Shown here: piece after piece, positions 46,171-62,784 of the stretch
Layout of the letters: each line of letters starts with the position of its first letter
Numbering within the stretch: the first letter of the stretch is position 1
From: Pseudobdellovibrionaceae bacterium
GTDB taxonomy: Bacteria > Bdellovibrionota > Bdellovibrionia > Bdellovibrionales > Bdellovibrionaceae
Reading direction: 5' to 3'
DNA length: 64,000 bases
Assembly (NCBI GenBank): GCA_044359815.1
Contig: JBIKLL010000004.1
Span: forward strand, 24,244-88,243
The notes under the pieces: generated by a model
The model's database searches: none
Told to the model about the DNA's origin: nothing
The model's input: the letters and a program-made list of their open reading frames with translations, nothing else
Made by a program: the position numbers and the translations under genes

Positions 46171-46545
46171 CTAGTTCGACCTAGAATCATCAATTTCATA
46201 TACGCTGATGTCTTTTGTTTTTTGGAAGATCACGTCCTTATCCAGTTCAATTCCATTAATCAATCTGAACTTTACAAACTGCTGCATGACGGAGGTTTTG
46301 AAACTTGGGTTAAGATCGTTTAGGTACCTAGCGAGATAGGCATCCATTGCTACTCCGCGCTCTGATAAGGCATCAACCAAAAATTTGAATGCCAAAAGGA
46401 GATCAAACTCCACAATCGCAACCGATGTCTCCAAGCCAGGTGATTCAAATACTATGGCCGAGCTTTCTTCTCCTCTATTGGCCACAAGAATCTTGCTTAA
46501 TGTTGGCACATCGATACCTTTGTGGTCCTTGTATTCACTGAACAT
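46171..46545 (-). CDS. hypothetical protein, tandem paralog B
   Basis: Aligns end to end with 46622-47014. Confidence 0.78.
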   Translation of the reverse strand: MFSEYKDHKGIDVPTLSKILVANRGEESSAIVFESPGLETSVAIVEFDLLLAFKFLVDALSERGVAMDAYLARYLNDLNPSFKTSVMQQFVKFRLINGIELDKDVIFQKTKDISVYEIDDSRSN

Positions 46546-46621
46546 AAAAATCCCTTCTGTTAAAAGTTGCTTGTTTGGTTTGTTCATAGATTGAGATCAT
46601 GCCGCCATCTCTCGGAACTGC

Positions 46622-47014
46622 TCAATGCAAAGTACTTTCAGAAATTGAGTCATCGGCCTCGATCTCGTAAATACTGAAATCCTTATTTTTTAGAAAGATC
46701 ACGTCTTCTTTCGTCTCGACACCATTATTGATTCTGAATCTCGCAAAATGCTCCATAACCTCTGTCTTAAAGCTTGGAGCGATCGTGTTTAATGTCTTTG
46801 CAAGATATGAGTCCACGGAAATGCCCTCTGCCGCTAGTTCATTCACCAAAAACATGAAAGCAAGAATTAGCTCAAACTCTACTATCGCAACATGGGTTTT
46901 TAAGCCCGAATCCCTAAATACTATGGCTGAACATTCTTCTTCTCTATTGACCAACAGAATTTCGTCGAGCTGCTCGATGGTGATTCCTTTATGGTCATTG
47001 TACTCTTTGAACAT
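46622..47014 (-). CDS. hypothetical protein, tandem paralog A
   Basis: AAGGAGG RBS; paralog of 46171-46545. Confidence 0.8.
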   Translation of the reverse strand: MFKEYNDHKGITIEQLDEILLVNREEECSAIVFRDSGLKTHVAIVEFELILAFMFLVNELAAEGISVDSYLAKTLNTIAPSFKTEVMEHFARFRINNGVETKEDVIFLKNKDFSIYEIEADDSISESTLH

Positions 47015-47196: not shown

Positions 47197-47230
47197 AAAA
47201 AAAGCCAATGGCGTTGCCATTGGTTTTTTT
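47197..47230. terminator. bidirectional intrinsic terminator
   Basis: A7, GCCAATGGC-GTT-GCCATTGGT hairpin, T-tract. Confidence 0.85.
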
Positions 47231-47275
47231 ATTTGTGGGGAACCGGACCCGAATCACGTCGCAGGCTTTGGTTCG

Positions 47276-47402
47276 ACAAAAAGTCCATGATGGACTTTTT
47301 GCGTGAAACCTTGAGCAAAGCGAAAGGGTGAGTACATGGATGTGCGAGCCACAAAAAGTCCATGATGGACTTTTTGCGTGAAACCTTGAGCAAAGCGAAA
47401 GG
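47276..47402 (+). repeat. two identical 52-bp direct repeats with an internal palindrome and a 23-bp spacer
   Basis: Copies at 47276-47327 and 47351-47402; AAAAGTCCA-TGA-TGGACTTTT palindrome. Confidence 0.9.
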
Positions 47403-47519
47403 TGAGGGAAAGGGCCCCTTCAGCCTTCGGTAAGAACTTCGGTCTCGCTTCAAATTGAGGCCGCGTTTTCTGTCCGTAAAAATACAGCAACAAGTTCTTT
47501 CTTAAACAATTAAATTACT

Positions 47520-48053
47520 TTAGAACGGACTCCACCACGGCTTTTGCGCTAAGGGACCGGGTGCTGATCCCCCATTATAGTGAATCCTTTCGGGATAATT
47601 ATGATATCCAGGAATACTGGTATTACATCCTCTTACGTACTCTGCATAGGATTCGACTTTCTGAGAATTGCGGCTATAAGAAACCCAAAAATACATAATA
47701 CCATGCAGCTCGTAGGGAATATTTTTGGTACTTCAATTTGTTTCAAAGCCATCGTGTTTATATTTATAATCTGTATTTAAGTTATTACGGGACAGATCAC
47801 AGGCTAATTGACGTCGGTCATAAATAAGTCTTTCTCCACGCAGTCGATCATCTTCAAATGTTGTTTTTCGTGCATCTGCGCATTGGGCACGAAATCCTTG
47901 CGGCTCTCTATAACAAGATGAACAAGCAAACTCTCCTTCCCACATTTTCTTGCATTTGCTTACGCAATGGCGAAAAGCATAGTTCACAATAGTTGTTTCT
48001 TGTGAGGACGCTTGGTTAAATCCATTCAATAGCAGTTGAAGCATAAATCTCAT
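47520..48053 (-). pseudogene. degenerate paralog of the Cys-rich protein at 27777-28844
   Basis: HCVSKC...ACDLS...KPWWSPF homology; in-frame TGA near 47733; N-terminus deleted. Confidence 0.85.
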
Positions 48054-48367
48054 CTTGGTGCTGAGCCTTTATCTTACAAGTCTATATAAAGTTAGACATG
48101 GTTTTGATCAAAAGTCTGTTTCAAAATGAAACGTGTTTTTTAAATCCACTTTGAGTCGAAGCTCATATTCTAAAAGTTAATGGCGACCTGAAGTAAGGTT
48201 ATTCACAGTTAAAAAATACAACCCCATTTTGCTGGATTCACAGTAATCCAACAAAATTGGAAATGTTAAATCTGAAAATTTAGTCTCGAGTAATTGTGTT
48301 TCAAAAATCTAGGGTACTAAATAAATCAGAGCTGAAGAACGGTAAAATCCTGCTGGGAATGGCGATA

Positions 48368-50077
48368 TCAGGCTGCAGAAGATTCTGGTTTTTTTGACTC
48401 TGAAGGTTTGCTTTCAGTTGCAAACAAAGATTCAATCTGCTGCCCGATTCGATCACGCACATCAGCGACTTGTGACTGAGCTGCTTCCCGTTGCTCGAGT
48501 TTTCTAAAGTACTCGTACAAACGAACTTTTTGCTTAGGTTGCAACAAAGACTCAAATACCTGCCGTTCCGCTTTAGGCGTATTAAACAGTGCCAGAGACC
48601 ACTCCTCGATACTAAATTTGGGTAATATCTGTTTGTACTGTTCAGTATTAAGACCATAAAATGGATAGAAGGGTGGGCGGATCTTTCGCAAATTTGAATC
48701 TTCACCCGAAGCTAAGTAGATTTCTTTTTCGGCTTGAATAGCTGCAAATCTTGCAAAGTTTAAGATTTCTCTTTCACCTTTGAACTTTGATAACAAAGTA
48801 GAGTCATTGAGCGGTAAAATATCTAAAGCTTTCTTGGAGTACTTCTTAACAGTCAATTCATCCAAGGGCTCTGGCCTGAAAGTTACGTCCAAGATTTGCC
48901 CCCAATTTCCCGGAAAGATTTCTCGTGCCCATCGCACTCCTTCGCCTTTTGGTAGGTGAGCCAGAATGGTCATAGCTTCTTTCTCTGGAATTCCTTTAAA
49001 GAATTCGCCGCAACGGTCCTTTAATCTCCAAACTAAAATCAAAAACTGCTGCCAAGGTGCCTCTTTGGCGTTTCTTTGCACTCGCAAACAGCGCTGCAGT
49101 TCTTCAAGTGTTAAATTGCCAACATCGGTGGGATCATTCAAAGCTTCCATCCAGTCCAATGAATTTGATAATCCAAAAATTCGCATCCTAAGATCAAAAG
49201 GCATTTCTGCTAAAAAAGCTCCAAATTCACCTTTATTTTTTTTCAGAAAGTTTTCAAAAATCAGTATATCATCGAGTCTTGGAAAATCAGCATGCTGAGA
49301 TAATAGTTTAATACCCATTGTTACGTGTTCCAGAAATTTCAATGAATCCAACATTTTTACTTCAGAGGAACCCATTCCTGCTGAGGACTTGCTGAATCCA
49401 TCAGTGGGACTGATGCTGGATGTGTTAGATGAGCTACTAGGGCCACTGTCGTTTACTGTACTCGAGCGCTGACCCATGACTTCCTTAAGGCTTGAAGTCA
49501 CTTTTTGCGCAGCAAAAGTCAAAACACCAAAGAGCCCCAACAAAAACAGGCCAATCAGCAAACCTACCATCAAAATATGATAAGCATTGAGTTTTCCAGC
49601 GTCACCGGAGGGACTTGATAGCCAAGTTCGTTTGCGAACTTCAATAGAGTCTCGAGCCTCCATCATACCTAAGGATGGAATTAAGCTGCTTTTGATTTCG
49701 GTAAGTTCATCTTCACTCAAGTCCGCAGGCACAGTGATAATCATCGATATTTTTTTAACTCTTGAAATCAATGCCGTGGCAGAGAGAGTAGGGTCTTCCC
49801 ACTCATCGAATTTTTCTTCATCTGCCAAGTCGTAATAGGGAAGGCCATCGGACCTTTCGCCTTTTTTCAATCTAAGTAGAGGATCCACACTGACATTCAC
49901 AATGAACGGACGGCCTGGAAAGCGTGCTCGTAAAAAATCCATGGCTTCGCGGTTGAGCATTTTTTCTACTTCAAGAACTCGCGCTGGCCTTCCCACGGGG
50001 GGTGGAGTCTGAGCATTGGCCGGGATTAGATCTAGAAATCCAATAACAAGATAGATCAAAGAAATGTACTTTATCAT
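48368..50077 (-). CDS. FliF(S-ring domain)-FliG-like fusion protein
   Basis: Signal peptide; VKKISMIITV...LSEDELTEIKSSL..SLG...RDSIEV (FliF-C-like); one TM; C-terminal YKQILPKFSIEEWSLALF...QVADVRDRI (FliG-C-like). Confidence 0.7.
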   Translation of the reverse strand: MIKYISLIYLVIGFLDLIPANAQTPPPVGRPARVLEVEKMLNREAMDFLRARFPGRPFIVNVSVDPLLRLKKGERSDGLPYYDLADEEKFDEWEDPTLSATALISRVKKISMIITVPADLSEDELTEIKSSLIPSLGMMEARDSIEVRKRTWLSSPSGDAGKLNAYHILMVGLLIGLFLLGLFGVLTFAAQKVTSSLKEVMGQRSSTVNDSGPSSSSNTSSISPTDGFSKSSAGMGSSEVKMLDSLKFLEHVTMGIKLLSQHADFPRLDDILIFENFLKKNKGEFGAFLAEMPFDLRMRIFGLSNSLDWMEALNDPTDVGNLTLEELQRCLRVQRNAKEAPWQQFLILVWRLKDRCGEFFKGIPEKEAMTILAHLPKGEGVRWAREIFPGNWGQILDVTFRPEPLDELTVKKYSKKALDILPLNDSTLLSKFKGEREILNFARFAAIQAEKEIYLASGEDSNLRKIRPPFYPFYGLNTEQYKQILPKFSIEEWSLALFNTPKAERQVFESLLQPKQKVRLYEYFRKLEQREAAQSQVADVRDRIGQQIESLFATESKPSESKKPESSAA

Positions 50078-50838
50078 TTGTTACCTCCTGGCTCGATCAC
50101 TAAAACTACTTTACGAGCCAAAGCCAAAGAGCCTTGCGCAGGCCTTATCGAAGCTGGTAGCCTTGCAAGTTCATCTGCCGTAACGACGAGTTCGCCATAT
50201 CCTCCGGTGCGGATGCGATCAATAGGAATCCCAGCGCTTTGGAGGACTCGCATCGCAGCAATGGATCGCAGAGCTGAAAGTTCTAAATTATCTTTGAATC
50301 GAAGCACTCCTTGGAGAACTTGTCTGTTGTCAGCAAAAGCTCGAATGCTTACAAAAAAGTTTCCAGAATAAGGCACAAAAAGTTTAGCAAATTGAGTTAA
50401 GCTTTCTCGGCCGTCTTTGGTTAGATCCACTTGTGAGGAGTTGAAAAAAGACACACCAGGGAACTCTAACAAAACTTTGTCATCAACTTCATATGCCACA
50501 GGAGCAAATTCTTTTGGGAACGTGACTTTGTTTACAGCTGCATCCTCAGACGGTAAATTGGGACGAACTGCCGCTCCCGCCGGGGTGATGGGTTTCACTT
50601 GGTCAAAGTAAGGTTTATCACTTTTGCCTTCAGTAATAGCTTTGATCTCATCTAAAAAAGCAACACGCATTTTATTTGGACGGGGTGGACTTTGATCCAA
50701 CGAGAAAAATAAAATAAAAAATGTAAGTAGTAGTGTGATCAAATCGCCGTAACTTACAGCCCAAGTTCCTTCAGTGTCTACTTCTTCGGCTTCCGTGTGC
50801 CTATTTCGTTTTCGATGAAGGGATTTTGTAAAACTCAT
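50074..50838 (-). CDS. motB: MotB-family stator protein
   Basis: WAVSYGDLITLLLTFFILFF with the conserved Asp; OmpA-like C-domain DNLELSALR...GYGE. Confidence 0.9.
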   Translation of the reverse strand: MSFTKSLHRKRNRHTEAEEVDTEGTWAVSYGDLITLLLTFFILFFSLDQSPPRPNKMRVAFLDEIKAITEGKSDKPYFDQVKPITPAGAAVRPNLPSEDAAVNKVTFPKEFAPVAYEVDDKVLLEFPGVSFFNSSQVDLTKDGRESLTQFAKLFVPYSGNFFVSIRAFADNRQVLQGVLRFKDNLELSALRSIAAMRVLQSAGIPIDRIRTGGYGELVVTADELARLPASIRPAQGSLALARKVVLVIEPGGNK

Positions 50839-51608
50839 GCGGCATCTTCTCCCGTGAACTGACTCATGCGCTCGTCGGCATTGATGTAGCTTTGCAAGAA
50901 CTCGGAAGTTACAATTTGCGAATCTTCAGTCAAAGAAAGCATCACAGCAGAAATGGCGATTTCCCCAGCGTACTCTTCACCTTGCACGGATTGAGTGAGC
51001 ACTTCGCCAAAAGGTCCAATCAAATAGTTGGCCATAATGAGTCCGTACATAGTTGCGACAAGGGCGAGGGCCATTTCAAGAGCAGTCTCACCTGCAGGCA
51101 TGCCGCGCGAAACCCCACGCATCACGTTTACTAGTCCTAAAACAGTTCCCATCAAACCAAACGCAGGTGGGTACTTGGCAATTCCCTTAAGAACTCCCGT
51201 AACCCTTCTTAGTCTTCGGATTCTGGCATCCAATCGTTCACGCAAGATGATCTCAACGTGCTCGTTGCTAATGCCTATTTGCTTCAAATCAAAACCCTCG
51301 CGCAAAAGACTTCCGTAAATTCTCTTTGCGACTTCATCCGAACAGCTTTTGGTTTTGGTTGCATTTTCACAGTCGGCGATTACTTGCGCAAGCGGGTATC
51401 CTGATCGTTTAATTAATTTTGAAAAAGCCCATTTGATTTCAGCTTTCATTTCCCAAGGTAAGACCATCACGGCAGCAGCTATAGTTCCACCCACCACCAT
51501 GATTAAAGCGACAAAATCATAGATTGAAGACAGCGCTTGTCCCAGATACATCATCGCACCTACGAACGACAGTATTCCGATAAACAATCCAATAGGTAAA
51601 AAGCTCAT
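50835..51608 (-). CDS. motA: MotA-family stator protein
   Basis: ALIMVVGGTIAA, PAFGLMGTVLGLV and ALVATMYGLIMAN...P; overlaps motB. Confidence 0.9.
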   Translation of the reverse strand: MSFLPIGLFIGILSFVGAMMYLGQALSSIYDFVALIMVVGGTIAAAVMVLPWEMKAEIKWAFSKLIKRSGYPLAQVIADCENATKTKSCSDEVAKRIYGSLLREGFDLKQIGISNEHVEIILRERLDARIRRLRRVTGVLKGIAKYPPAFGLMGTVLGLVNVMRGVSRGMPAGETALEMALALVATMYGLIMANYLIGPFGEVLTQSVQGEEYAGEIAISAVMLSLTEDSQIVTSEFLQSYINADERMSQFTGEDAA

Positions 51609-51694
51609 TTTTATTGACTCCTAAGACGCTCTGTCTCGAAATGTAATCGGCGAACGTCCCGACAAGATGAAGTCCAGCGTGATTTAACTGTGCT

Positions 51695-52234
51695 TTAGTA
51701 CTGATGAGCGCGAATAGTTTCAGACTCAAATAAAGGTAGCTCCAGGCCCTTGATCCAGAATTTTTCCTGAACAGCTTTGGCTGCGATGGCTTCTTGGTGG
51801 TACTTCATTCGGCTTCGATTAATGGACTCTTCAATTTTTTCTAATCCAGTGGGTTTTAGTTGTAAAGCGCTAGGGTTGGTCAGCAAATTACCCAGAGCAC
51901 TACTTACTTTGTTTTGAATTTGCTCAAAGCGATCTAAGTCCTCTTTGGTGGTTAGTGAAGCTTTTAGGGTCTCTTCGAGCTCTTGGGCTTCAATCTGCTG
52001 AAAAGTAATTTTTTCTTTATTGGCTTTTGACTTTATTTGATTGACCCAACTAAGAAACAAAGTCGTTCGCTGCGAATACAACTCTACAAGCTTAATCAGT
52101 TCAGCATTCGCTGCTTCAGAATGTTGGAGCTGCTGAACTTGGGCTTTTTCTCGTTCCATCAAGATAAAAATTAAACCTGCTCCAAGGATCAAAGCGGTGC
52201 CTAAAGCTAAAATGATTCTTCTTGGTGTTTTCAT
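51695..52234 (-). CDS. LemA-like membrane-anchored protein
   Basis: N-terminal TM; YSQR and LEKIEESINRSRMKYHQEA resemble LemA helices. Confidence 0.65.
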   Translation of the reverse strand: MKTPRRIILALGTALILGAGLIFILMEREKAQVQQLQHSEAANAELIKLVELYSQRTTLFLSWVNQIKSKANKEKITFQQIEAQELEETLKASLTTKEDLDRFEQIQNKVSSALGNLLTNPSALQLKPTGLEKIEESINRSRMKYHQEAIAAKAVQEKFWIKGLELPLFESETIRAHQY

Positions 52235-52329
52235 GAGACAAAGTGTATCTGGAAATCTTGTTAAATCTGAGTCCTGCTGAATTTGGACTAGCCTTTAACT
52301 AGTCCTGCACTTTATGAAGGGGGCAGTTT

Positions 52330-55300
52330 TTAGAACCAACGTCGGACCAGTCGGATCAAGTGATTGGATCGCTCTGAAATGTATAGATTTCCACTGCCAT
52401 CAAAAGCCAACCCAAAGGGCGAGTTCAAGCTCACAGGCGAGTAGCTTAGCGGATTTGAGTTGTAACTGGCGTTGACATTTTCCATTTCAGATCCCAACGG
52501 GGCACCGGCTCGCACGTTGCTATTGGACGCTGGACCAACAGTCAGCGAGGGGTTGGTCGTTGCAGACGCACGATCAAAACACTGTACAAAATGCGGTCCT
52601 TGGTTTCCATTGTTCACATTCGGATGTCCGGCGGCATAGCAAATTTGGTTACCAAAAGTGGCAAGCCCTTGCAGCCAGCCAGCAGTGGCGCCCAGTACCG
52701 AAGTCGCTGCTGCATTCACGTTCAGCAGAGTGGTCACTGTGGCATTCCCTCCAGTGGCTGCGGGCACCGGAATTCCACCAATATAAATATTGGCCTGCAT
52801 AGCGCCGCAACTTCCGGAGCAAGCTGCGTAGTAATTGACGTATCTAAGGCGGCTTGGATTTAAGTCAATGGCATCAGCAAAAAAGAAGTTCCCTGGGTAA
52901 AGTGGGTCCGCCATAATTGCCGTAGGGAATCGAATCAAAGCACTTGTGATACTGCCGTCTGTCGTGTTGGCTGTTCCGCATGTTCCCACCGTGTTGATCA
53001 GATCCCCAGAGGGCGTGACCCGCATGATGCAATGATCATTGTAGTTAGAAAACAAAATATTTGTGCCGTCAAAAGCCACTTGATCCGGAGTATTCAATCG
53101 AATGCCCGTAGCTGTAGCCGGACCTCTGTTTGTGCCTGGAGCTGTCGGAGACAAAGTACCGCAAGGAAAACTTGCGTCCCCGGCCAAATCCACGACCAAG
53201 TTTCCGGGGATTGATTGCCCTGCTAAAGAAGTCAAAGTTGCAGTCATATTGGCGGCTCTGATTTGGCAAAAACTTCCGGAGCTCCAGTTCCCTTGGTCGG
53301 CAAAAACCAGCAAAGGCACGTTGCCACTACCGTTGACCATGGTCATCCCTCTAGGGGAGTTCACATTCACTGAAGTGGGGCCACCCACATGGAAGTTGCC
53401 TTGCGTGCCCAGTCCAACCGCTGCATTGACTTTGCCCGTGAGCAAATTCACCGAGCGAATGTAGAAGTGCGAAGAGTCCGACACATAGAGCATATTATTG
53501 GCTGTATCGATCGTGATGCCAGAAGGGTCCGCCAAAAAAGTATCCACAGCATCCGAATTGGCTTCGTAGACGTCATTTCGCCATCTGTAAGAACCTAGCA
53601 CTCGGTAGGTCTCACCATTCGTTGAGGTCACGGGCAGACCCCTGATCACACGGTCGTTGGTATCAGCAACAAAAAGATGTCCCGTGTTTGAATCCAGGGT
53701 CAGACCGATCGGATTCTGCAGCTGCGCCGTAGTGCCCGGTCCATCGTTGGGCGGCATCAACGTACCGCCAGTACCAAATATAGTTTGGCTACCGTATGCA
53801 GGAACAACAACGCTACTGATCGTCCGAGCAGAGCCTGTGTTGTTAAGGTAAAAAGCCCGGTGGTAGTTGTTACTTGCGTAGTAAAAACCAGTCACGTTAC
53901 CGCCAGAGGTTTCAACCTGCAGACCCCAAGCTTGTCCCCATCCCAAAGCGCCGAACGTGTTGTTTTGATTGAACTGATTGGCTGAGTAAGCCGTGCCTGC
54001 AAGAGTAACTGTGGCGTTGGCAGGTGCAATCGCAGTGCCTCGATAATAGTAAACCGCATTAGTGGTGCTGGCCGCGATCGTCACACCCCAGATCGGAGTC
54101 GTGGAACAAGCCGAATCGGTGTAAAAGTTTCCGAAACCTTGGTGATGTAAATTTGTGTTTACTGCTGTCGACCTGAACGCAACCAAGTTGCTAGAGTTTC
54201 TGTATTGCACCAGCAAAGGAACACACTCGCCATTGATGTGATTGGGGGCTGCAAAAGCCGCAAAACGATCGGCAGTGCTCGGCGGAGCGCCCGTTCCAAC
54301 GGTCACGGCTAAACTGCCTGCAGTAAGACCTGTTGCTGTCGCAGAAAAATTGACTCCACCCGCAGTTGCGTTTCGGTAGAAGAAAAGCACCGAGGATCGA
54401 TTTGCCGGAATCGTCACAGAAGCTGCGGATGTCGAACAGCTACTATCCGAGAAAAAGGCCCCAGTCCCGGCTCCTGCTAAATTCACGGCTAGAGGTGTGG
54501 CATTCGCGAAAGCATTGTTAGTGGCATTTCTGCGCACAACGATAAAAGGTGTGCAAGTATTGTTGCCAGCCACTGTGCTGCCCACTAAAAGCAAATTGGC
54601 TTGAGCGCCTGTCGCTGCAATCGGAGTCAGTGCGGGAGCCACAGTATTTGATTGTAGCATCCCCCCAGAAGTAGCTCTGTCATTAACATAAAGGCTATTA
54701 CCCCAAGCGGCGACAGAAGTGGTTCCGTCAAAGAAGGTCATCGCAGATCCTGCAGTGGTTGCCATACGCAGACGGTAGCCGCCGACTTCCATCCAATAGA
54801 TGTTGCCATTGCCATCATCCGACAGCGCCGAGGGAGCGTTCACTCCCGCAGCATTCAGCTGACTGGTGTGCTGAGGTGAGGGCACAGCACCGTCGTTGTT
54901 AGAGGCAACGCTCGACCCCGCACTATTGAGAGTTACGACGGTATTGTATGCTCTTAAATAATTTGGGCTGGTGGGTAAGACATCTAAGCGTTTGATGGCG
55001 TGCGAACTGTAACATGAAACATACAGCCAACGGTTTCCGCCATGATTCACCAATCGAACATCGGCAGGATTCTGGCAAAAATGAGTTGTGCCCAGATTAC
55101 CACTGGTATTACCCGCAGCATTGTTAGCAGGAGCCGCTGCACCCGGCACTTGGCCTAAAACTGTGACAAGTTTCCCGTCAGTTCCTAAGCGCACCACCCG
55201 CCAATTGTTCCAATCCGCAATGTATAAAAAGCCAGTGGCAGAGTCATAGGCAATTCCGCGGGGGTAGTTCAATTTGGCGTTGGTGTTGGTGGTGGTATTG

Positions 55301-58300
55301 TCAGGAGTCAAACCATCGGCACCATTACCCACGATGACTTTCATTTGTCCTGCGGGAATGGTCATGCTCCACCTTGAGATATTTTGACTGCTACGATTCC
55401 AGAACCAAACCACGTGATTGATTTGGTCACTGAAAATTAAATTCCCACCGTCGTCATTGATGACAAATGCTGGGTTGGTTTTGATTTGCGACTGAGTAGA
55501 GAGGCTCGGCACGACAGAATCACCGATCGATGGATTTCCGACCAAAGTGCAAATCTTGCCGCCAGAAGTATTTGAGTTCAGCAGATCATTGCAGGCTTGA
55601 GAAAAAGCGTTGACCCGAATTGTCCAGCTTCTGGTCGCGGATTCATACCCGTCAGAGACTGTGACAGACACAGTGTTTGAGCCCAGGTAGCTCGCATTCC
55701 CTCCAGGGTTTAGAGTCGTGATGGATGACCCTGATGGAAGAATGGTTGAATTTGGAAAGCCGTTAATCTTCCACTCATAGGTTAAATTGTCATTGTTTGC
55801 ATCGGTCGCAGTCACACCCAAAGTGATCGAGCCCTTGTAGTACAAATTGTAGGCTTGCGAATTGACGGGATTCACCGCGGTCACTTGCGGGGCTGCATTG
55901 ACTTTAACATTAAAATCACAGTCGTCTGTATTGTCGAGGGCGTCTGATGCCACACCTTTGAAAGTGTAGTCGCCCGAGGCCAAGCTGCCTGAAGAAACAT
56001 TGTAGCTTGAGCCAGTAATACCACCAATCAGAACACCATTGCGGTACCATTTGTATCCATCACCCAAAGCATTTGCAGCAACCACTTGCAACGTTTTTGT
56101 ACTGTCAGCACCCGCAGAGTAAACCACTACTGGATTGATGGCAGGCAAACAGGAAGTGACGTTGACCGTATTGGGATTCACAATATCAAAAGTCCAACTG
56201 CAAGAGCCAGCGTCGTAGCCATCATCAAATCCAAGACTCACCAATTGCCCGTTACCCACTTGGCTGAGGGTCGGTACAAAAGTCGCCGAGCTGGCTGTAG
56301 CTGTGGTGTTTACAGACGTGAACAAACTTGGGTTTGGCAAAGCCTGAAAGCGCCATCCATAATTTGTGACCGTGTCTCCGTCAGGATCTGACGAAGTTGC
56401 TGAAAAGGCTACAGTTTGGTTGTAAGGCAAAGCCGCAGGATTTGAAGCTGGAGTCTTACTTTGACAAATGGGCGCTTGATTTTTTGACACGACCCAAGTT
56501 CTTGTCGTTGGCGAAGTGATTCCGTTGTCAAGGTTCGCCACGATCGTGTTGGTGTCTGGACCTGAATTCAACTGTGAGGATAAAAAGTTACGTAGTGGTC
56601 CGGTCCCTACAGGAGTACCGTTGAGGGTCCACGAAACCACACAGGTGGCATCCGTAGGAATCGCAGCAAAGGATGTTTGTGTTGAAGGCGCAACGGAGAC
56701 TTTGTAAGTTGACGTCGCGGGCACCGCTGTTGAAATTGAACAGCTGTTGATGACTTGAGTTGTCCACGAGCAAGAAGCAGAATCATAACCATCGTTAACA
56801 TTCACTTGTATGCTTTGTCCGGCTCCTATCTGGGCAGCCGTCGGAGCAAAAATCGCTTGCCCAGTATTGCCACTGCTAGACACCGTGAACAAAGGCGATG
56901 ATGCCGCATTTCCGTTGTACAGCCATGAATAAGTCAAAGTGTCTGAGTCCGGATTTCCGGCATTGGCGATAAAAGTGGTATTGCCACCAATCCCTGTGGA
57001 TGAGCCCAAAGAACTCGGCGTTTGGCTATCGCAAGTTGGAGCTTGATTTCTTGTCACCGTCCAAGATCTGGTGGTGGTCGACAAACCATTAGATGCTGTT
57101 GCCACGAGGGTGTTCGTTCCTGGAGACGCTAAGAACTGAGAAGAGTTCAAATTCAGAATGCTGCTGGTGGCGCCAACCACGGTGTTGTCGTTGAGCTTCC
57201 AGCTGACTAAACACGTAGCATCGCTTGGTGTTGCTATGAAAGTATTTGAAACGGCTCCATTGCTGGCTACCTTAGCAGTCGCCGTCGACGGGTTGGCTGC
57301 AGTGATGGCACAGGCAGGAACAACTTCCACTGACCAACTGCAAGACGTGGAGTCATACCCGTCTGAAATCATTGCCAAAGCGTTGTTAAACCCTAGAAAA
57401 CTTGCTGTGGGGCTAAAGGTCGCTCGGCTGGCATTCGAGGCCGGAGTCGAAAGCACGAATTCAGGCCCAATCGCCGCACCCTGATTGGTCCAATTGAACG
57501 TGATATCGTCAAAGTTCGCATCTGAAGCATATCCCGTCAACTGAATGCTGTTGCCGACTGCAAGCACACTGCCGGTCGGACTGGGGCTCTGAGACGAACA
57601 AATCGGAGGTGTGTTCTTGACGACCGTCCAAGTCTTTGTGTCTGTTGTGAATCCATTTGTAACGGACACGGACAATGTGTTGCTACCGCCGTTCAGCGAT
57701 GACGAAGGCAAATAATAGGTGCCCGAAGTGGCTGTCGGGATCGCCAGGCTATTCAGAGTCCAAGTATAAGCACAGCCCGAGTTCGCAGGAGCCTGAAAAA
57801 GAGTCGTTGCACTTGAGTTGAATGGGGCACGAACATCACCCGAATTTGATGGGGTTGCCTGAGAAATAATACACTGATTTAAAATATCAACAGTCCAAGA
57901 GCACGAAGCCGTGTCGTAGGAGTCATTCAAGTCCGCTGTTACAATCTGACCCAGTCCCGTGTAGCTTGCGTTTGCGCTGAATACCACCTGGCTGGAGTTG
58001 CCAAACGAAGAAGTTGTAAAGTGAGAAGGGTTCGGCGTGGATCCGTTGTACTTCCAGCCAAAAGTCATCGAATCATTGTCTGTGTTGGAAGCATTCACTT
58101 GAAAAGTGATGTTGCCACCCACACCCACGGTGTTGCCAGCACTTGCTGGATTTTGAGAAGAGCATGACGGCGGGGTATTTTTCACCACCGACCACAATTT
58201 GGTGTCTGATGTGAAACCATTCGAGACCGACACCTGTAATACATTCGCACCTGCATTCAGAGCTGAATTATTTAAAGTGTACGCACTCGACGTGGCACCA

Positions 58301-60306
58301 GTCACCGTCGCTCCATTGAGGGCCCAAGTGTAATTACAACCAGGATTTGCAGAGGCTTGAAATGTTTTCTGGTTAAGGATTCCGGTTGGACTAGATGACA
58401 ATTTAACATCGCTGGTGTTTAAGGGGCTAAGGTCAGAAATAGTACAAGCGTTCTGCACACTGACGTACCAGGTGCAATTGGATGTGTCGTAGCCATCAGA
58501 AATCGCCATGGTCACGTTTTGATTATTGCCCACCAAGCTTATAATCGGAGTGAAAATAACCTGAGAAGTGCTGCCTGAGCTCGAAGGGGTAAAGTAAGCG
58601 GCACTTGCTATTTGTCCGTTGTGGATCCAAGAGAAAGTCAGGTTGTCGTTGTCAGGATTGTTTGCTGTTCCTGAAAATATGATAGATCCACCAATCCCCA
58701 CGTTGTTTCCGTTCATCGACGGGGTTTGCGAGTTACATGTGGGTGGTTGGTTTTTTGTGATGCTCCAAGTTCGAGTAGTTGTTGTGAAGCCGTTGTTGGC
58801 TGTTGCAGTCAAAGTGCTAGCAGCTAAACTGGAAACTTGTGCTGAACTTAAAGTAAGGGCTTGTCCAGTGGCGCCGACTATGGGGCTACCGTCAATTGCC
58901 CACGTCACCGCGCATGAGGAATCATTCGTGGTGGCCAAAAAGTTCATCGTGGCTGAAGGAGACGCTGAGATTTTTAAATTACTGCTGGAAGGGGACGCTG
59001 AGATAAACTGGCAAGCGGGAGCCACTTGAACTGTCCAGGTACACGAAGAGGTGTCATACCCATCGTTCATATTGGCACGAACAACATTCGTGCCACTCGC
59101 AGAAGCGGTTGGCGTATAACTAGCCGAGCTTGAAGACGCATTCGACACCACCGAGAACCCGCCTGAGTTTCCGCCAAGTCCCACGTCTGAGCCATTGTTC
59201 GTCCAAGAAAACGTGACTGGATCTGAGTTCGGATCAGCTGTGTTGGCCGTTAAGCTGAGCGTCCCACCAACGCCCACGGATGAGCCCACCATTCCTGGCA
59301 CCTGTGAGGAGCACAATGGAGGGGTGTTTTTCAAAACCGTCCAAGTCTTCGTCTGAGAACTGCTGGCATTGCTTGCAGTCACTTCAAGTGTATTTGAGCT
59401 TGAAGATGTTGAAAGCGCTGTAGTCAAAAGTTGTAGCGCAGAGTTGTTTGTACCATTGATCGAAACGCCGTTGAGCTTCCAAGTCAAACTGCAACCAGTT
59501 GAAGCTGCGGCCTGAAAAAGCGTCTGAGCAGTGCTCGAAGCTGGAGCCCGCACCGTAGTATCTGCCGCTGGCGAAGTAGAGGTGACAGTACATGCTGGAT
59601 TGACCGTTACGTTCCAAGAGCAGTTTTTGTAGTCAATTCCGTCGTAAACCCGCATGTTCACAATCCGCTCGCCGGACCAATTGCTATCAGGGGTGAAAGT
59701 TCCCTGGCTGTTTGAATTTGATGAAACCCAACTCAGCACCGAAGAAGCAACCTGAGTCCCGCCCACGGTCCAAGAAAATGTGATTGCATCGCCATCTGGA
59801 TCAGAGGCTGAGCCCGTAAAGACTGTTTCGCTTTCAAGGCCAAGTTGAAGACCCGAAGCAGAATTGGTAGGCAGTTGAGGTCCGCAGGTGGGAAGCTGAT
59901 TTTTTGTCAAGACCCACTTTTTTGTGGTTGAGCCCGAGCTCGCAATCAGAATATTCTGACCGGAATTCAGCTGCGCAGAATCGATAGCGATCTGTGCTTC
60001 TGTTTTGTCAAGAACAGTACCATTAAGCTGGTAAGAGACCGCGCAAGTTGAAGATGACAAACCCACAAGAAAGTCTGTTGTGTTTCCTGCCAAAGCAGAA
60101 ACTTTTATGTCTTCTTCCTTGGGGGAAGAGTTCGTGATTTTACAATCTTGCTGACTGGCAGAATTGCTTTTGTTGTCCATGAAATCAAAAGATTCGCTTT
60201 CACCAAGGCATCCTGATAAAACCAAAGAACCACAAATCAGTGTGAAAAGCTTTAGTTTGCTTTTGATCAGGTTGCAAAAAATGAAATACCATCTTTCAAT
60301 TTTCAT
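52330..60306 (-). CDS. giant surface lipoprotein/adhesin with Ig-like repeats and NHL-type beta-propeller repeats
   Basis: Lipobox LSGC; 7-8 ~190-aa units marked by KNxPPxC; C-terminal LNYPRGIA...LYIAD and LNSPFGLAFDGSGNLYISE repeats. Confidence 0.88.
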   Translation of the reverse strand: MKIERWYFIFCNLIKSKLKLFTLICGSLVLSGCLGESESFDFMDNKSNSASQQDCKITNSSPKEEDIKVSALAGNTTDFLVGLSSSTCAVSYQLNGTVLDKTEAQIAIDSAQLNSGQNILIASSGSTTKKWVLTKNQLPTCGPQLPTNSASGLQLGLESETVFTGSASDPDGDAITFSWTVGGTQVASSVLSWVSSNSNSQGTFTPDSNWSGERIVNMRVYDGIDYKNCSWNVTVNPACTVTSTSPAADTTVRAPASSTAQTLFQAAASTGCSLTWKLNGVSINGTNNSALQLLTTALSTSSSSNTLEVTASNASSSQTKTWTVLKNTPPLCSSQVPGMVGSSVGVGGTLSLTANTADPNSDPVTFSWTNNGSDVGLGGNSGGFSVVSNASSSSASYTPTASASGTNVVRANMNDGYDTSSCTWTVQVAPACQFISASPSSSNLKISASPSATMNFLATTNDSSCAVTWAIDGSPIVGATGQALTLSSAQVSSLAASTLTATANNGFTTTTRTWSITKNQPPTCNSQTPSMNGNNVGIGGSIIFSGTANNPDNDNLTFSWIHNGQIASAAYFTPSSSGSTSQVIFTPIISLVGNNQNVTMAISDGYDTSNCTWYVSVQNACTISDLSPLNTSDVKLSSSPTGILNQKTFQASANPGCNYTWALNGATVTGATSSAYTLNNSALNAGANVLQVSVSNGFTSDTKLWSVVKNTPPSCSSQNPASAGNTVGVGGNITFQVNASNTDNDSMTFGWKYNGSTPNPSHFTTSSFGNSSQVVFSANASYTGLGQIVTADLNDSYDTASCSWTVDILNQCIISQATPSNSGDVRAPFNSSATTLFQAPANSGCAYTWTLNSLAIPTATSGTYYLPSSSLNGGSNTLSVSVTNGFTTDTKTWTVVKNTPPICSSQSPSPTGSVLAVGNSIQLTGYASDANFDDITFNWTNQGAAIGPEFVLSTPASNASRATFSPTASFLGFNNALAMISDGYDSTSCSWSVEVVPACAITAANPSTATAKVASNGAVSNTFIATPSDATCLVSWKLNDNTVVGATSSILNLNSSQFLASPGTNTLVATASNGLSTTTRSWTVTRNQAPTCDSQTPSSLGSSTGIGGNTTFIANAGNPDSDTLTYSWLYNGNAASSPLFTVSSSGNTGQAIFAPTAAQIGAGQSIQVNVNDGYDSASCSWTTQVINSCSISTAVPATSTYKVSVAPSTQTSFAAIPTDATCVVSWTLNGTPVGTGPLRNFLSSQLNSGPDTNTIVANLDNGITSPTTRTWVVSKNQAPICQSKTPASNPAALPYNQTVAFSATSSDPDGDTVTNYGWRFQALPNPSLFTSVNTTATASSATFVPTLSQVGNGQLVSLGFDDGYDAGSCSWTFDIVNPNTVNVTSCLPAINPVVVYSAGADSTKTLQVVAANALGDGYKWYRNGVLIGGITGSSYNVSSGSLASGDYTFKGVASDALDNTDDCDFNVKVNAAPQVTAVNPVNSQAYNLYYKGSITLGVTATDANNDNLTYEWKINGFPNSTILPSGSSITTLNPGGNASYLGSNTVSVTVSDGYESATRSWTIRVNAFSQACNDLLNSNTSGGKICTLVGNPSIGDSVVPSLSTQSQIKTNPAFVINDDGGNLIFSDQINHVVWFWNRSSQNISRWSMTIPAGQMKVIVGNGADGLTPDNTTTNTNAKLNYPRGIAYDSATGFLYIADWNNWRVVRLGTDGKLVTVLGQVPGAAAPANNAAGNTSGNLGTTHFCQNPADVRLVNHGGNRWLYVSCYSSHAIKRLDVLPTSPNYLRAYNTVVTLNSAGSSVASNNDGAVPSPQHTSQLNAAGVNAPSALSDDGNGNIYWMEVGGYRLRMATTAGSAMTFFDGTTSVAAWGNSLYVNDRATSGGMLQSNTVAPALTPIAATGAQANLLLVGSTVAGNNTCTPFIVVRRNATNNAFANATPLAVNLAGAGTGAFFSDSSCSTSAASVTIPANRSSVLFFYRNATAGGVNFSATATGLTAGSLAVTVGTGAPPSTADRFAAFAAPNHINGECVPLLVQYRNSSNLVAFRSTAVNTNLHHQGFGNFYTDSACSTTPIWGVTIAASTTNAVYYYRGTAIAPANATVTLAGTAYSANQFNQNNTFGALGWGQAWGLQVETSGGNVTGFYYASNNYHRAFYLNNTGSARTISSVVVPAYGSQTIFGTGGTLMPPNDGPGTTAQLQNPIGLTLDSNTGHLFVADTNDRVIRGLPVTSTNGETYRVLGSYRWRNDVYEANSDAVDTFLADPSGITIDTANNMLYVSDSSHFYIRSVNLLTGKVNAAVGLGTQGNFHVGGPTSVNVNSPRGMTMVNGSGNVPLLVFADQGNWSSGSFCQIRAANMTATLTSLAGQSIPGNLVVDLAGDASFPCGTLSPTAPGTNRGPATATGIRLNTPDQVAFDGTNILFSNYNDHCIMRVTPSGDLINTVGTCGTANTTDGSITSALIRFPTAIMADPLYPGNFFFADAIDLNPSRLRYVNYYAACSGSCGAMQANIYIGGIPVPAATGGNATVTTLLNVNAAATSVLGATAGWLQGLATFGNQICYAAGHPNVNNGNQGPHFVQCFDRASATTNPSLTVGPASNSNVRAGAPLGSEMENVNASYNSNPLSYSPVSLNSPFGLAFDGSGNLYISERSNHLIRLVRRWF

Positions 60307-60595
60307 ACCTATACGACGAGACTCACTTTCTTAAAATTCAGAGATTTCCGAAAACATTTCTCAGTTTTTAATAACCAGATTAATCCCTAAAGTGGTATCG
60401 GCTTTTCGCAGGAGGCTCTAAAGCTAAATCTCAAAATGCAGCGGTTTTTGAGATTGAATATCATGATTTGCTTTTAACCTGGACTTCAGCCCGAGTCTTG
60501 TTTTTAGATGTTTCTATTTAGGACTGGACTTGTTCCTATCGGTCTTTCCTTGACCCGTTTCAAAATGAAGCGTTTAATTTAGATCGGGGGCGAAA

Positions 60596-61216
60596 TTGAA
60601 GACTAGCTTTCTTGTTTCTTTTGTTTTTTTAATAGGATGCGCTGGCAAACAAATTTCTATTGAGTCTGATCCTGTGGGTGCTGATGTTTTTGTGTTTACG
60701 CCAGGACAGGCCCCCAAAAAAGTGGGGCAAACACCGTATGCGCTTACAGAAAAAGACATTTCAGATCGCAGTTCACCGATACAAATCCAAGCTTCAAAAG
60801 ATGGGTACCAGTCAACAAGTGTTATTATTCCATCCTCAGTCTCGGGCTATTTAGGTAAAATAAGCTTTAAATTAGAAGCTCCCACATTACCCAATCAATG
60901 TTTAAATCAAACAGAAGCACTTAACAAAGTGGCGCGAGCCGTTGCTGAAGCGCAAAGTCTTATGAAGTCTAAGCAGTACGATCTTGCTGAAAAGATCATG
61001 AGCGATATGATTGTAAGTTATCCAGGATTGAGTTTGGTTTATGATATTCTGGGAAATATTTACTACTTAAGAAGAGAGTTTGATAAGTCTTTAAATGCTT
61101 ACAAAAAATCACGTTCACTCTCTCCAGAAAATGCAAAGACTCAAAGAATGATACAGCAAATTGAAGATATCAAGAGTGGTAGAGATAGTTCTTTCAAAAG
61201 GGAAAACGACCAGTGA
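60596..61216 (+). CDS. PEGA domain plus TPR lipoprotein
   Basis: Lipobox LIGC; IESDPVGADV...GQTP...KDGY (PEGA); LGNIYY...AYKKS..LSPEN (TPR). Confidence 0.85.
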   Translation: MKTSFLVSFVFLIGCAGKQISIESDPVGADVFVFTPGQAPKKVGQTPYALTEKDISDRSSPIQIQASKDGYQSTSVIIPSSVSGYLGKISFKLEAPTLPNQCLNQTEALNKVARAVAEAQSLMKSKQYDLAEKIMSDMIVSYPGLSLVYDILGNIYYLRREFDKSLNAYKKSRSLSPENAKTQRMIQQIEDIKSGRDSSFKRENDQ

Positions 61217-61767
61217 AGTGCTTTTGCCTTGTAATTGTTGTTTTAGGGTTGTTTAAAAGCTTACCAGTCATGGCGTTAGGTAAGCTTGACATGTGTTTTG
61301 GGGCTTATTCTTTGGCTGCTAAATCCAGTCAAGGCGAGGGGAAAGCCTCTGGACTAGGCTCCTATGTAGTAACTTACCACTACGGTTTTTTTGATGGGTT
61401 AGATTTTTCGGTGGGTTACAGCTTGTTTTTTTCAAACATCATTACCGGGGACATGGGGTTTGGTCCCGATTTAGGACTTACTTATTATCCTATAACTTCT
61501 TCGGGTCCGACCGTCTTAAAAACTGATGGAATTTATTTGTTGATAAAGGAGCAGTGGCGTCCTTTGATCAATGTTTCTTTTAATCAGCGTCAGTTTCAAA
61601 GCTCTGATTCTTCTTATGCGGGACTTTCTTTCGGTTTCGGAACTGAATATTCTTATTATCAGTCTTTTGATTTTAAAGGGATGTTTCGTTATCAATTATT
61701 AAAAGGGCCAGCTTCAACTGCTGCGACTTTTATAGATTTTCTTTTTGGAGTAAGTATCTCTATCTAA
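61213..61767 (+). CDS. small outer-membrane beta-barrel protein
   Basis: Signal peptide; about eight amphipathic beta-strands; overlaps the upstream stop. Confidence 0.72.
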   Translation: MKCFCLVIVVLGLFKSLPVMALGKLDMCFGAYSLAAKSSQGEGKASGLGSYVVTYHYGFFDGLDFSVGYSLFFSNIITGDMGFGPDLGLTYYPITSSGPTVLKTDGIYLLIKEQWRPLINVSFNQRQFQSSDSSYAGLSFGFGTEYSYYQSFDFKGMFRYQLLKGPASTAATFIDFLFGVSISI

Positions 61768-61926
61768 AAATACAAAAGGACACTGAAACCTTAAAATCAG
61801 TGGGCAGTGATTTTATCTGAAACCCCAGAGCCAAGAAGCGTATTTTCACTTATATTAAGCATCAATAGTGAGGAAGTTAGGAAGTGAGGACTATTAAGAC
61901 CACTGTGCACTGCAAGGCTTAACAGT

Positions 61927-62784
61927 CTAAAAAATTAATTTCTTAAGACTGGGTTCGGACCAGGTTTTGTCGTCAGGGCTCAGTTTTTCAAAATAATTTT
62001 TTGCAGATTCAATGGCGGCGCTGGTGTTTTGCAGATCGCCCTTGGATTTCAATGCTAAAGCTTTGGCCTGGTATGCAAAGAAAAACTCGATGGGTTCTGC
62101 ACTGTTTTTCTGGCAAATGCTCAGACAGTTTTCAGCGTGCTGCAGGGATTTTGCAAAATCCTTAGCCTGCAAATAGCTCTGTGATAATCGGTATTCGGCT
62201 CTTTCGATTTCAACCCAAGTGCCCGCCAGTTCCCAATGCTTGCGGCCGATTCTAGATGCGAAAATCATCAGCTCTTTATCAGCTTGACGACGGGCAACCA
62301 GTTCCTCCAGATGAACGGCAATATTGTTGCCGGCAATGGCTATGCTTTTGTGTGCGCTGTCCTTGGGATCTAATTTTTCAGCCATAATCGCAGCGTTTCG
62401 CAGATAAGATTGGCATAATTCATATTGTTTGCAGGCACACAACATTGAGGCTGCGTTTGCCAGGGCAAAAACTTCGTCAGAAATTGATTCAAATTTTATT
62501 TTTTCGGCATTGGATGCGACCTTGAAGCTTAAAATATTTCTGTGAGCAGTTTTCATCGATTCATCATTGTTCACAGAAAGGGCTTTTGCTTTTTCCAGCA
62601 AATCAATCCCCAGCTTCCAATTGGCCAAATGTTCGCCGCACACGTGGCTGGTCAATCTGCAAAACTTCAAAATATCTTCGGATGAGGTTATTAGTCCCAA
62701 ACCGCTTTCCAATCGGTCGCCGACCACTTGAGGGTCATCGCCATGATCGCGCCACGCTTGTTTATTAAATGCTTCAAATGCCAT
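61927..62784 (-). CDS. hypothetical TPR-like helical protein
   Basis: 285-aa all-alpha ORF with ERAEYRLSQSYL. Confidence 0.75.
   Translation of the reverse strand: MAFEAFNKQAWRDHGDDPQVVGDRLESGLGLITSSEDILKFCRLTSHVCGEHLANWKLGIDLLEKAKALSVNNDESMKTAHRNILSFKVASNAEKIKFESISDEVFALANAASMLCACKQYELCQSYLRNAAIMAEKLDPKDSAHKSIAIAGNNIAVHLEELVARRQADKELMIFASRIGRKHWELAGTWVEIERAEYRLSQSYLQAKDFAKSLQHAENCLSICQKNSAEPIEFFFAYQAKALALKSKGDLQNTSAAIESAKNYFEKLSPDDKTWSEPSLKKLIF

Follow-up and report, generated by a model that had tools for sequence, protein, structure and literature searches.

The bacterial flagellar motor is usually viewed as an indivisible assembly of ring, export gate, rod, switch and stator, and the locus described herein raises the question of whether rotor and stator could stand, now or at an earlier time, without type III export. 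The locus lies in a 64,000-nucleotide stretch of the genome of a Pseudobdellovibrionaceae bacterium (GenBank assembly GCA_044359815.1, contig JBIKLL010000004.1, positions 24,244 to 88,243 of the forward strand; hereafter the window, whose own numbering is used throughout), and its central element is a single intact open reading frame (ORF) at 48368-50077 on the minus strand, which starts with ATG, carries GGAGG 8 nt 5' of this codon, and encodes a 569-residue fusion protein designated X569. A first-pass annotation had described this frame as a single-polypeptide rotor combining FliF-like and FliG-like parts, and the peptides that it quoted were all located in the 569-residue frame, namely VEKMLNREAMDFLRARFPGRPFIVNVSVD at residues 37-65, VKKISMIITV...RDSIEV at residues 107-146, and MTILAHLP at residues 369-376. 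The analysis revealed that X569 joins a periplasmic domain of the FliF ring-building motif 3 (RBM3) type, via a transmembrane (TM) helix and a flexible linker, to a cytoplasmic module of the FliG middle plus C-terminal (M+C) type, which is preceded by a further helical domain predicted to be of FliG type, and that its gene is kept together with motA and motB in Bdellovibrionota, along with genes for a TPR lipoprotein, a predicted outer-membrane barrel and a giant lipoprotein. On this basis, we lean towards regarding X569 as the rotor subunit of a stand-alone, export-independent, flagellum-derived motor having its own MotAB stator. The layout of X569 is as follows, where AF2 denotes AlphaFold2, pLDDT its predicted local distance difference test score, and VIA the structural superposition described below.

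48368..50077, minus strand: X569, FliF(RBM3)-TM-FliG-like fusion (ORF, homologue family, AF2 model, fold matches)
50009..50077, minus strand: signal-peptide-like N-terminus, residues 1-23, ending at ANA/Q (sequence; AxA-Q pattern in homologues)
49619..49990, minus strand: periplasmic FliF RBM3-like ring-building domain, residues 30-153 (VIA, hhalign, 4-copy co-fold)
49781..49879, minus strand: conserved loop (LPY...DEW.DP) at the position of the FliF beta-collar, residues 67-99 (pLDDT ~41-43; conservation; hhalign gaps)
49475..49585, minus strand: transmembrane helix, residues 165-201 (AF2 helix; hydrophobic stretch YHILMVGLLIGLFLLGLFGVLTFAA)
49349..49474, minus strand: Ser/Gly-rich disordered linker, residues 202-243 (pLDDT 27-33; length and sequence variable in homologues)
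49049..49348, minus strand: first cytoplasmic FliG-type helical domain, predicted, residues 244-343 (isolated fold; VIA search)
48680..49048, minus strand: FliG middle-domain-like region, residues 344-466 (VIA; hhalign; MTILAHLP aligned to TILVHLK of Escherichia coli)
48410..48679, minus strand: FliG C-terminal-domain-like region with torque helix (K515, E522), residues 467-556 (VIA; family profile against the PDB; alignment to E. coli FliG)

The AF2 model of X569, which was built from 15 sequences, had a mean pLDDT of 77 and reached about 90 in the cytoplasmic part. It placed a helix at residues 2-16 of the N-terminus, which resembles a cleavable signal peptide and retains the AxA-Q pattern in homologues, and divided the remainder into a periplasmic domain of about 125 residues and an all-helical cytoplasmic part of about 310 residues, the helices of which span residues 245-555. 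In the periplasmic domain, a helix (32-52), a strand (59-66), the low-confidence loop, a second strand (107-117), a second helix (122-136) and a third strand (144-150) followed one another in the model, and this predicted alpha-beta-beta-alpha-beta order is the topology of the ring-building motif with an insert between beta1 and beta2. The signal peptide, TM helix and Ser-rich linker of the first-pass annotation were thereby recovered at the ANA/Q end, the predicted helix 165-201 and the disordered stretch 202-243, respectively.

When the model was compared with the PDB by Foldseek, ranks 1-30 were occupied exclusively by FliG or FliF, and E <= 0.001 was reached by one match only (8umx_B, 6.7e-4, 322 columns). 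By superposition with VIA, residues 336-556 were aligned with residues 97-320 of FliG chains comprising M+C, and the C-terminal domain matched 1qc7_B (Z 12.7, root-mean-square deviation (rmsd) 2.5, 88/89 residues) as well as 8ucs_H, in which FliG is bound to MotAB (Z 12.1, rmsd 2.1, 85/88 residues). At the other end of the protein, residues 30-153 superposed on Salmonella FliF 234-438 and Vibrio FliF 263-452, with Z 10.4-10.8 and rmsd 2.0-2.5 for FliF RBM3 over 92-96 residues, the collar being skipped; lower scores against this domain were obtained with Ohr/OsmC (at most 8.2, the best unrelated fold), SpoIIIAG (7.5), PrgK (7.4) and EscJ (7.3). The resemblance of X569 to FliF and FliG thus exceeds chance, and the model, structure prediction being one of the checks proposed by the first-pass annotation, agreed in its folds with both RBM3 and FliG.

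The domain preceding the M+C module was folded in isolation from 15 sequences (residues 241-346, pLDDT 85.6). Among 48,161 chains compared with VIA, Z >= 5 was reached by four only, all of them FliG (3hjl_A, 7.9; 1qc7_B, 6.0; 4fq0_D, 5.5; 1lkv_X, 5.2), followed by MgtE at 4.7, and the superposition on 3hjl_A covered 97 residues at rmsd 4.2. The predicted domain fitted FliG-M/FliG-C better than FliG-N, as the FliF-FliG-N complexes 5wuj_B and 5tdy_D scored Z 3.6; Foldseek with the isolated domain gave no match at E <= 0.001.

At the level of single sequences, this kinship was hardly visible. A phmmer search of the PDB with X569 gave no sequence match, as did a 15-sequence X569 profile against the PDB, and X569 was not recovered when its own genome was searched with PF01706 (FliG_C) at E <= 0.01. 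BLASTP of X569 against the FliF and FliG of its own genome likewise detected no similarity, so that the FliF/FliG signal is limited to the profile and fold levels. For the profile comparisons, FliG and FliF alignments were built from the same genome and 20 others of the phylum. With the 15-sequence X569 alignment, hhalign gave E 0.14 for FliG, which is not significant, and E 8.8e-4 for FliF, covering alpha2-beta3 only. With a 133-sequence family alignment (A2), residues 355-553 were aligned to FliG 128-329 (58% probability, P 1e-4) and residues 35-157 to FliF 239-424 (66% probability, P 5.7e-5), both colinear with the structural alignments. Furthermore, the A2 profile searched against PDB sequences placed FliG in the top five of 12 rows, the best being the C-terminal domain of Thermotoga maritima FliG at E 4.9e-4, and a Pfam scan of 85 of the 133 members, taken one at a time, detected FliG_C at E <= 0.01 in 20 (best 3.8e-6) and MgtE_N in five, with no other family recurring. 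In the homologue from locus L003, FliG_C scored 29.2 bits, which is above the cut-off. As to the two FliF- and FliG-related assignments made beforehand, the S-ring-like domain and the FliG-C-like end downstream of MTILAHLP are hence both corroborated by fold and by profile.

A word-indexed search yielded 14 homologues of X569, all of 568-584 residues, and an exhaustive profile search extended the family to 225 clusters at 50% identity, 213 of which had E <= 1e-10; nearly all members were 540-600 residues long and matched end to end. In a protein atlas, the neighbors of X569 were clusters of 480-720 residues from several phyla annotated with FliG_C, FliG_M and YscJ_FliF_C, which serves as a lead only. 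Across the 133 sequences of A2, to which E. coli FliG was added for residue numbering, W93, D143, W309, W392, E450 and Y454 were invariant. The loop 67-99, which replaces the collar, was among the best-conserved regions of the family, with W93 in 133/133, P80 in 132/133 and D91 in 124/133 sequences.

The alignment to E. coli FliG (X569 356-554 on FliG 118-318 by hhalign) placed K515 at R281 and E522 at D288, the former position being K/R in 132/133 and the latter E/D in 91/133 sequences. In two publications (PMC12505986; PMC7564593), FliG R281 and D288 are described as the residues facing MotA E98 and R90. The invariant R467-P-P-F470 corresponded to the MFxF hinge of FliG, and the K264 position was occupied by F498 (F in 84/133). 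The FliM-binding EHPQR motif was not kept, as EHPQ was replaced by I363-P-E-K366 and R160 by V398, and none of these columns had a residue at >= 50% in the 133-sequence consensus. The beta-collar was also not present, since a 33-residue loop stands where FliF has about 110 residues and hhalign opened gaps. The suspicion in the first-pass annotation that RBM1 and RBM2 are missing proved correct: the ordered part of the protein from the signal peptide to the TM helix is limited to residues ~30-153, and RBM3 takes up all of these roughly 125 residues. With RBM1, RBM2, the beta-collar and the FliM-binding motif all absent, a ring of X569 would therefore contain no export gate, rod socket or switch complex.

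Self-association was assessed by co-folding four copies of residues 28-156 with A2, which gave a score of 0.76 (median of 0.72, 0.77 and 0.76), whereas none of three controls exceeded 0.00. The mark applied was reached by 20/30 proteins solved as same-chain pairs and by 1/23 solved as single chains. The runs agreed in at least 81% of contacts, with a partner pLDDT of at least 79, and the middle copy was predicted to contact its two neighbors through different faces, one formed by alpha1/beta1 and the other by residues 96-105 and 131-137. Such two-face contacts are what lateral ring packing requires, and the prediction supports ring building. What the co-fold predicts is lateral contacts; a closed ring, which comprises about 33-34 subunits in FliF, lies outside its reach.

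X569 is encoded next to a complete stator pair and in the vicinity of four further genes, as follows.

50074..50838, minus strand: MotB-like stator subunit, 254 residues (plug, TM Asp, OmpA-type peptidoglycan-binding domain)
50835..51608, minus strand: MotA-like stator subunit of the short PomA/MotP type, 257 residues (Pfam MotA_ExbB 6.6e-20)
51695..52234, minus strand: 179-residue membrane-anchored coiled-coil protein with weak LemA likeness (Pfam LemA 5.3e-4, below cut-off)
52330..60306, minus strand: 2658-residue giant lipoprotein, adhesin-like, with Ig/cadherin-like and NHL repeats (NHL 1.3e-14, Cadherin_5 4e-5, lipobox LSGC)
60596..61216, plus strand: 206-residue lipoprotein with a PEGA-like N-terminal domain and TPR (lipobox LIGC; TPR_2 1.2e-6; PEGA likeness by eye)
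61213..61767, plus strand: 184-residue predicted small outer-membrane beta-barrel (signal peptide; alternating pattern)

The stator subunits were of the flagellar kind. The nearest PDB sequences of MotA were flagellar MotA/PomA (E ~1e-15) versus 4.6e-5 for ExbB, and MotB matched MotB_plug (3.4e-11) and OmpA (7.9e-7) of Pfam. P173 and P222 of MotA were kept in 14/14 cassette sequences, and the channel Asp of MotB (the E. coli D32 position) in 14/14 rows covering the position; in the window MotA, K85 stands in the R90 column and D91 in the E98 column. The stop of motA overlaps the start of motB as ATGA, as does that of motB with the start of the X569 gene, and the three genes are thus translationally coupled. 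Scans for promoters and terminators over 47400-62000 gave 15 versus 17.5 and 15 versus 17.0 in shuffles, and thus no excess. Assignment of the cassette to the Zorya defense system (ZorAB) was rejected, as PADLOC returned only generic ZorB-model matches to the MotB/OmpA parts and no ZorA; MotA and the other four proteins had no PADLOC match.

Gene order was compared with 16 related loci (L001-L016) from metagenome-assembled genomes of Bdellovibrionota, which were probed with the window proteins. The motB gene was immediately upstream of the fusion gene in 15/15 loci having upstream sequence, and motA and the TPR lipoprotein gene, the latter as the first gene of the cassette, were present in all 13 sufficiently long loci. 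Directly 3' of the fusion gene, a barrel gene of 160-185 residues was found in 13/14 loci having downstream sequence, the exception being the closest relative (L002), on a 3.1-kb contig. A homologue of the giant protein occurred in 13/16 loci, where its position or orientation varied among four arrangements. Two carriers from the phylum sample described below (L070 and L072) showed the order TPR, motA, motB, fusion, barrel, giant. The 179-residue LemA-like gene, which sits between the giant gene and motA in the window, had no tblastn match in L001-L016 and is peculiar to the window arrangement.

In the window itself, the six cassette genes lie within 48368-61767 in an arrangement that differs from all other loci seen. 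On the minus strand the order is giant, LemA-like, motA, motB and X569, and the TPR and barrel genes, which overlap by 4 nt, are on the plus strand beyond the giant gene as seen from X569; the motA-motB-fusion block has been relocated from between TPR and barrel to downstream of the giant gene. The barrel candidate had no PDB sequence match at E <= 10, no NCBIfam match and no model in the Atlas, and its nearest Atlas clusters were annotated as outer-membrane beta-barrel proteins (0.97), again a lead only. The giant proteins measured 1251-2658 residues and all began with a lipobox, and 11/12 complete ones carried a C-terminal [RK]W[WFY] after the last NHL-like repeat, an ending that could be a sorting or docking signal. 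For the window protein and the homologues from L001, L003, L005-L008, L011, L012 and L014-L016, to which this observation refers, a conserved ...GNLYI.E....IR.V motif preceded this ending. The G+C content across the giant gene (52001-60000) was 0.49-0.505, versus 0.38-0.455 in the remaining window.

The mechanism that we propose for X569 as a rotor subunit begins with the RBM3-like domains of many copies, which would pack laterally into an inner-membrane ring carrying a ring of FliG-like domains underneath. Ion flow through cell-wall-anchored units of the MotA5B2 type would push on the torque helix (K515, E522) and thereby turn the ring, which would operate independently of export and probably unidirectionally. 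The periplasmic loop 67-99 would be the likeliest output surface, coupling the ring to the three envelope proteins (lipoprotein, barrel and giant adhesin), for instance so that the adhesin is moved, deployed or put under tension at the cell surface. The adhesin may thus be the output of the motor, a link suggested by gene neighborhood. Taken as a whole, the picture of a second flagellar-type rotary motor, in which a C-ring-less and gate-less single-polypeptide ring with its own MotAB delivers work via loop, lipoprotein and barrel to a giant adhesin, is tentative, and we consider it possible rather than probable.

The same genes could be read differently. X569 might act as a non-ring energy transducer, in monomeric or small oligomeric form like TonB, TolA or GldM, such that MotAB acts on the FliG-like domain and the TM helix passes the effect to the periplasmic domain, which would energize the barrel or the export/anchoring of the giant lipoprotein. 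To our knowledge, and in the review passages available, the other known non-flagellar MotAB relatives are all partnered by a small transducer and none by a ring; moreover, the cassette encodes neither a rod nor another part that would transmit torque, and the combination of barrel and TPR lipoprotein recalls the Ton and Tol systems, the YbgF-like TPR match being weak (1.2e-4, below cut-off). We nevertheless regard this alternative as unlikely, because the fold of the periplasmic domain is specifically of the ring-building RBM3 type, with side-by-side packing via two different faces predicted for it, because the stator, having a plug and an OmpA domain, belongs to the flagellar and not to the ExbD/TolR type, and because the torque helix of FliG-C is retained. 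Decay may also be considered, as X569 is so divergent from FliF and FliG that BLASTP and Pfam searches came back empty, and it could then be a functionless relic of a duplicated flagellar gene pair. However, 225 clusters share its length and architecture, invariant residues persist across 133 sequences, and intact frames, translational coupling and conserved synteny were observed; such conservation already brings this explanation close to refutation, and we give it almost no credence.

A closer tie to the ordinary flagellum would make the cassette an accessory of it, whether as an alternative rotor/stator set, a brake or a stator reservoir. In this phylum, flagella with several stator sets are known, and the genome of the window encodes, besides one fliM, two MotB_plug genes beyond the cassette motB (three in total). 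Among 41 evenly sampled genomes of the phylum, members of the fusion family were detected in four, the genome of the window included, and canonical FliG in 24; all four carriers and 15/15 genomes behind L001-L016 had canonical FliG, so that in this lineage the cassette is an accessory in the sense of always coexisting with a flagellum. Against a function within that flagellum, X569 lacks RBM1, RBM2 and the collar, which form the MS-ring around the export gate, as well as EHPQR, and no flagellar gene adjoins it, the ordinary fliF (549 residues), fliG (345 residues), fliH and fliI of the same genome being on another contig. Its conserved neighbors are a barrel, a lipoprotein and a giant adhesin-like protein instead of flagellar parts, and the fusion occurs in 4/41 genomes against 24/41 for FliG. 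An accessory role in this stricter sense appears to us still less likely than a transducer.

Several points weigh against X569 as the rotor of a stand-alone motor. Ring formation, rotation and gate-free working are what we infer from its folds and residues, the AF2 model rests on 15 sequences only, and the hhalign probabilities reach just 58-66%. In the profile search proposed by the first-pass annotation, the FliG_C part stood in the family members mentioned above and the FliF part did not, as YscJ_FliF_C was detected at E <= 0.01 in 0/85 members and not in X569, which by itself had no Pfam or NCBIfam match at E <= 1 save a chance-level MIR. At the presumed stator interface, the D289 position of FliG is occupied by Y523, which is variable among homologues, and in the 14 cassette MotAs, the loop of which aligned poorly, the R90 column was K/R in 6/14 and the E98 column D/E in 4/14. 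A cassette-specific acidic motif of MotA, LLREGFDL (101-108), was much better conserved than these two columns and may, at a guess, be the real contact. The outcome of the co-fold may owe something to the resemblance to FliF rings already solved, and the score was calibrated on two copies, whereas X569 was run with four. Force transmission to the outer membrane is the weakest link of the rotor model, as the periplasmic part of X569 is too short to cross the periplasm and no rod-like component is encoded. Finally, with FliG in every carrier examined, the phyletic pattern does not speak for independence from the flagellum in this lineage.

Comparison with known systems places the cassette nearest to the core of the flagellar motor (FliF, FliG and MotA5B2/PomA5B2 of Salmonella, E. 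coli, Vibrio and T. maritima), with which it shares the RBM3 fold and a TM helix leading into the cytoplasm, FliG M+C including the torque helix with basic and acidic residues at R281/D288, and a stator equipped with plug, channel Asp and OmpA-type wall anchor. Unlike in those motors, in which FliF and FliG are separate, both are united in one polypeptide in X569; furthermore, flagellar FliF has TM1 at its N-terminus, RBM1, RBM2 and the collar, whereas X569 has a signal-peptide-like N-terminus and the 33-residue loop, and the cassette contains envelope partners in place of the export gate, rod, hook, filament, FliM and FliN genes of flagellar clusters. Covalent FliF-FliG linkage is likewise present in engineered and spontaneous Salmonella fusions, which according to one report assemble rings (PMC6079021). 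Those fusions contain full-length FliF within a complete flagellum, whereas X569 is natural, has a FliF part reduced to RBM3 and the TM helix, and occurs in a non-flagellar context. SpoIIIAG and PrgK/EscJ have the same alpha-beta-beta-alpha-beta ring-building fold, with an insertion in the same loop in SpoIIIAG, but they scored Z 7.3-7.5 as against 10.4-10.8 for FliF RBM3 and none is joined to a FliG-like domain.

Among gliding machines, GldLM with the type IX secretion system and SprB (Bacteroidota) and AglRQS-Glt (Myxococcota) likewise combine an inner-membrane ion motor with outer-membrane parts encoded alongside, and a 2026 review describes an ion-driven 5:2-type motor, which in Bacteroidota serves giant mobile adhesins (PMC13104615). 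These machines differ from the cassette in using GldLM or TolQR-like units and periplasm-spanning GldM/Glt without FliF/FliG parts, whereas the cassette combines a MotAB-type stator with a FliG-like rotor candidate. The same review terms the gliding machinery of Bdellovibrio unidentified (PMC13104615). A 2025 survey of MotAB divides stators into flagellar and generic ones, and its covered portions do not mention a fusion-type partner (PMC12505986). In the full-text literature, mostly outside subscription journals, no natural FliF-FliG fusion with its own stator was found described, and the fusion family, on record through automatic database names, is as far as we found apparently uninterpreted so far.

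The cassette hence appears to be a flagellar rotor-stator core re-used without the other flagellar parts, in which the torque-making elements (ring domain, FliG and stator) are conserved by themselves and wired to different envelope partners. If X569 rotates, it would offer a much simpler system for stator-rotor coupling, having neither switch nor export apparatus, and would be a living minimal rotor-stator core relevant to the origin of the flagellar motor. The cassette is likewise a candidate motor for the surface behaviors of Bdellovibrio-like predators, in that movement or tension of the adhesin driven by the proton-motive force might serve gliding or prey attachment in predatory Bdellovibrionota. 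As only 4/41 sampled genomes were found to have it, the cassette is excluded as a gliding motor general to the group.

Some further observations were made apart from the cassette. Tandem paralogous ORFs of 138 and 130 residues, which had no Pfam match, were found at 46171-47014 (minus strand) and 47229-47493, and an ORF lying immediately past this pair has the peptide FALLKVSRKKSIMDFL repeated in its translation, an indication of a direct repeat in the DNA. Two small stand-alone FliG_C proteins of 250 residues (Pfam 8.4e-8; G000 contig C36, L018:1159-1911, minus strand) and 154 residues (4.0e-6; contig C61, L019:1390-1854, plus strand) were also detected, the former adjoining a 224-residue protein that is TolQ/ExbB-like by eye, and FliG_C frames of 143-170 residues recur in many genomes of the phylum. 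In other carrier genomes, frames of about 600-618 residues had FliG_C matches (E 1.4e-9 to 1.9e-4) at G041:C98:3200-3490, G044:C73:4865-5167, G048:C279:1240-1539 and G042:C32:7406-7708. As these lie on contigs other than those of the cassette loci, they are distinct from the X569 homologues analyzed above and may represent a second family of long FliG-like proteins in these genomes.

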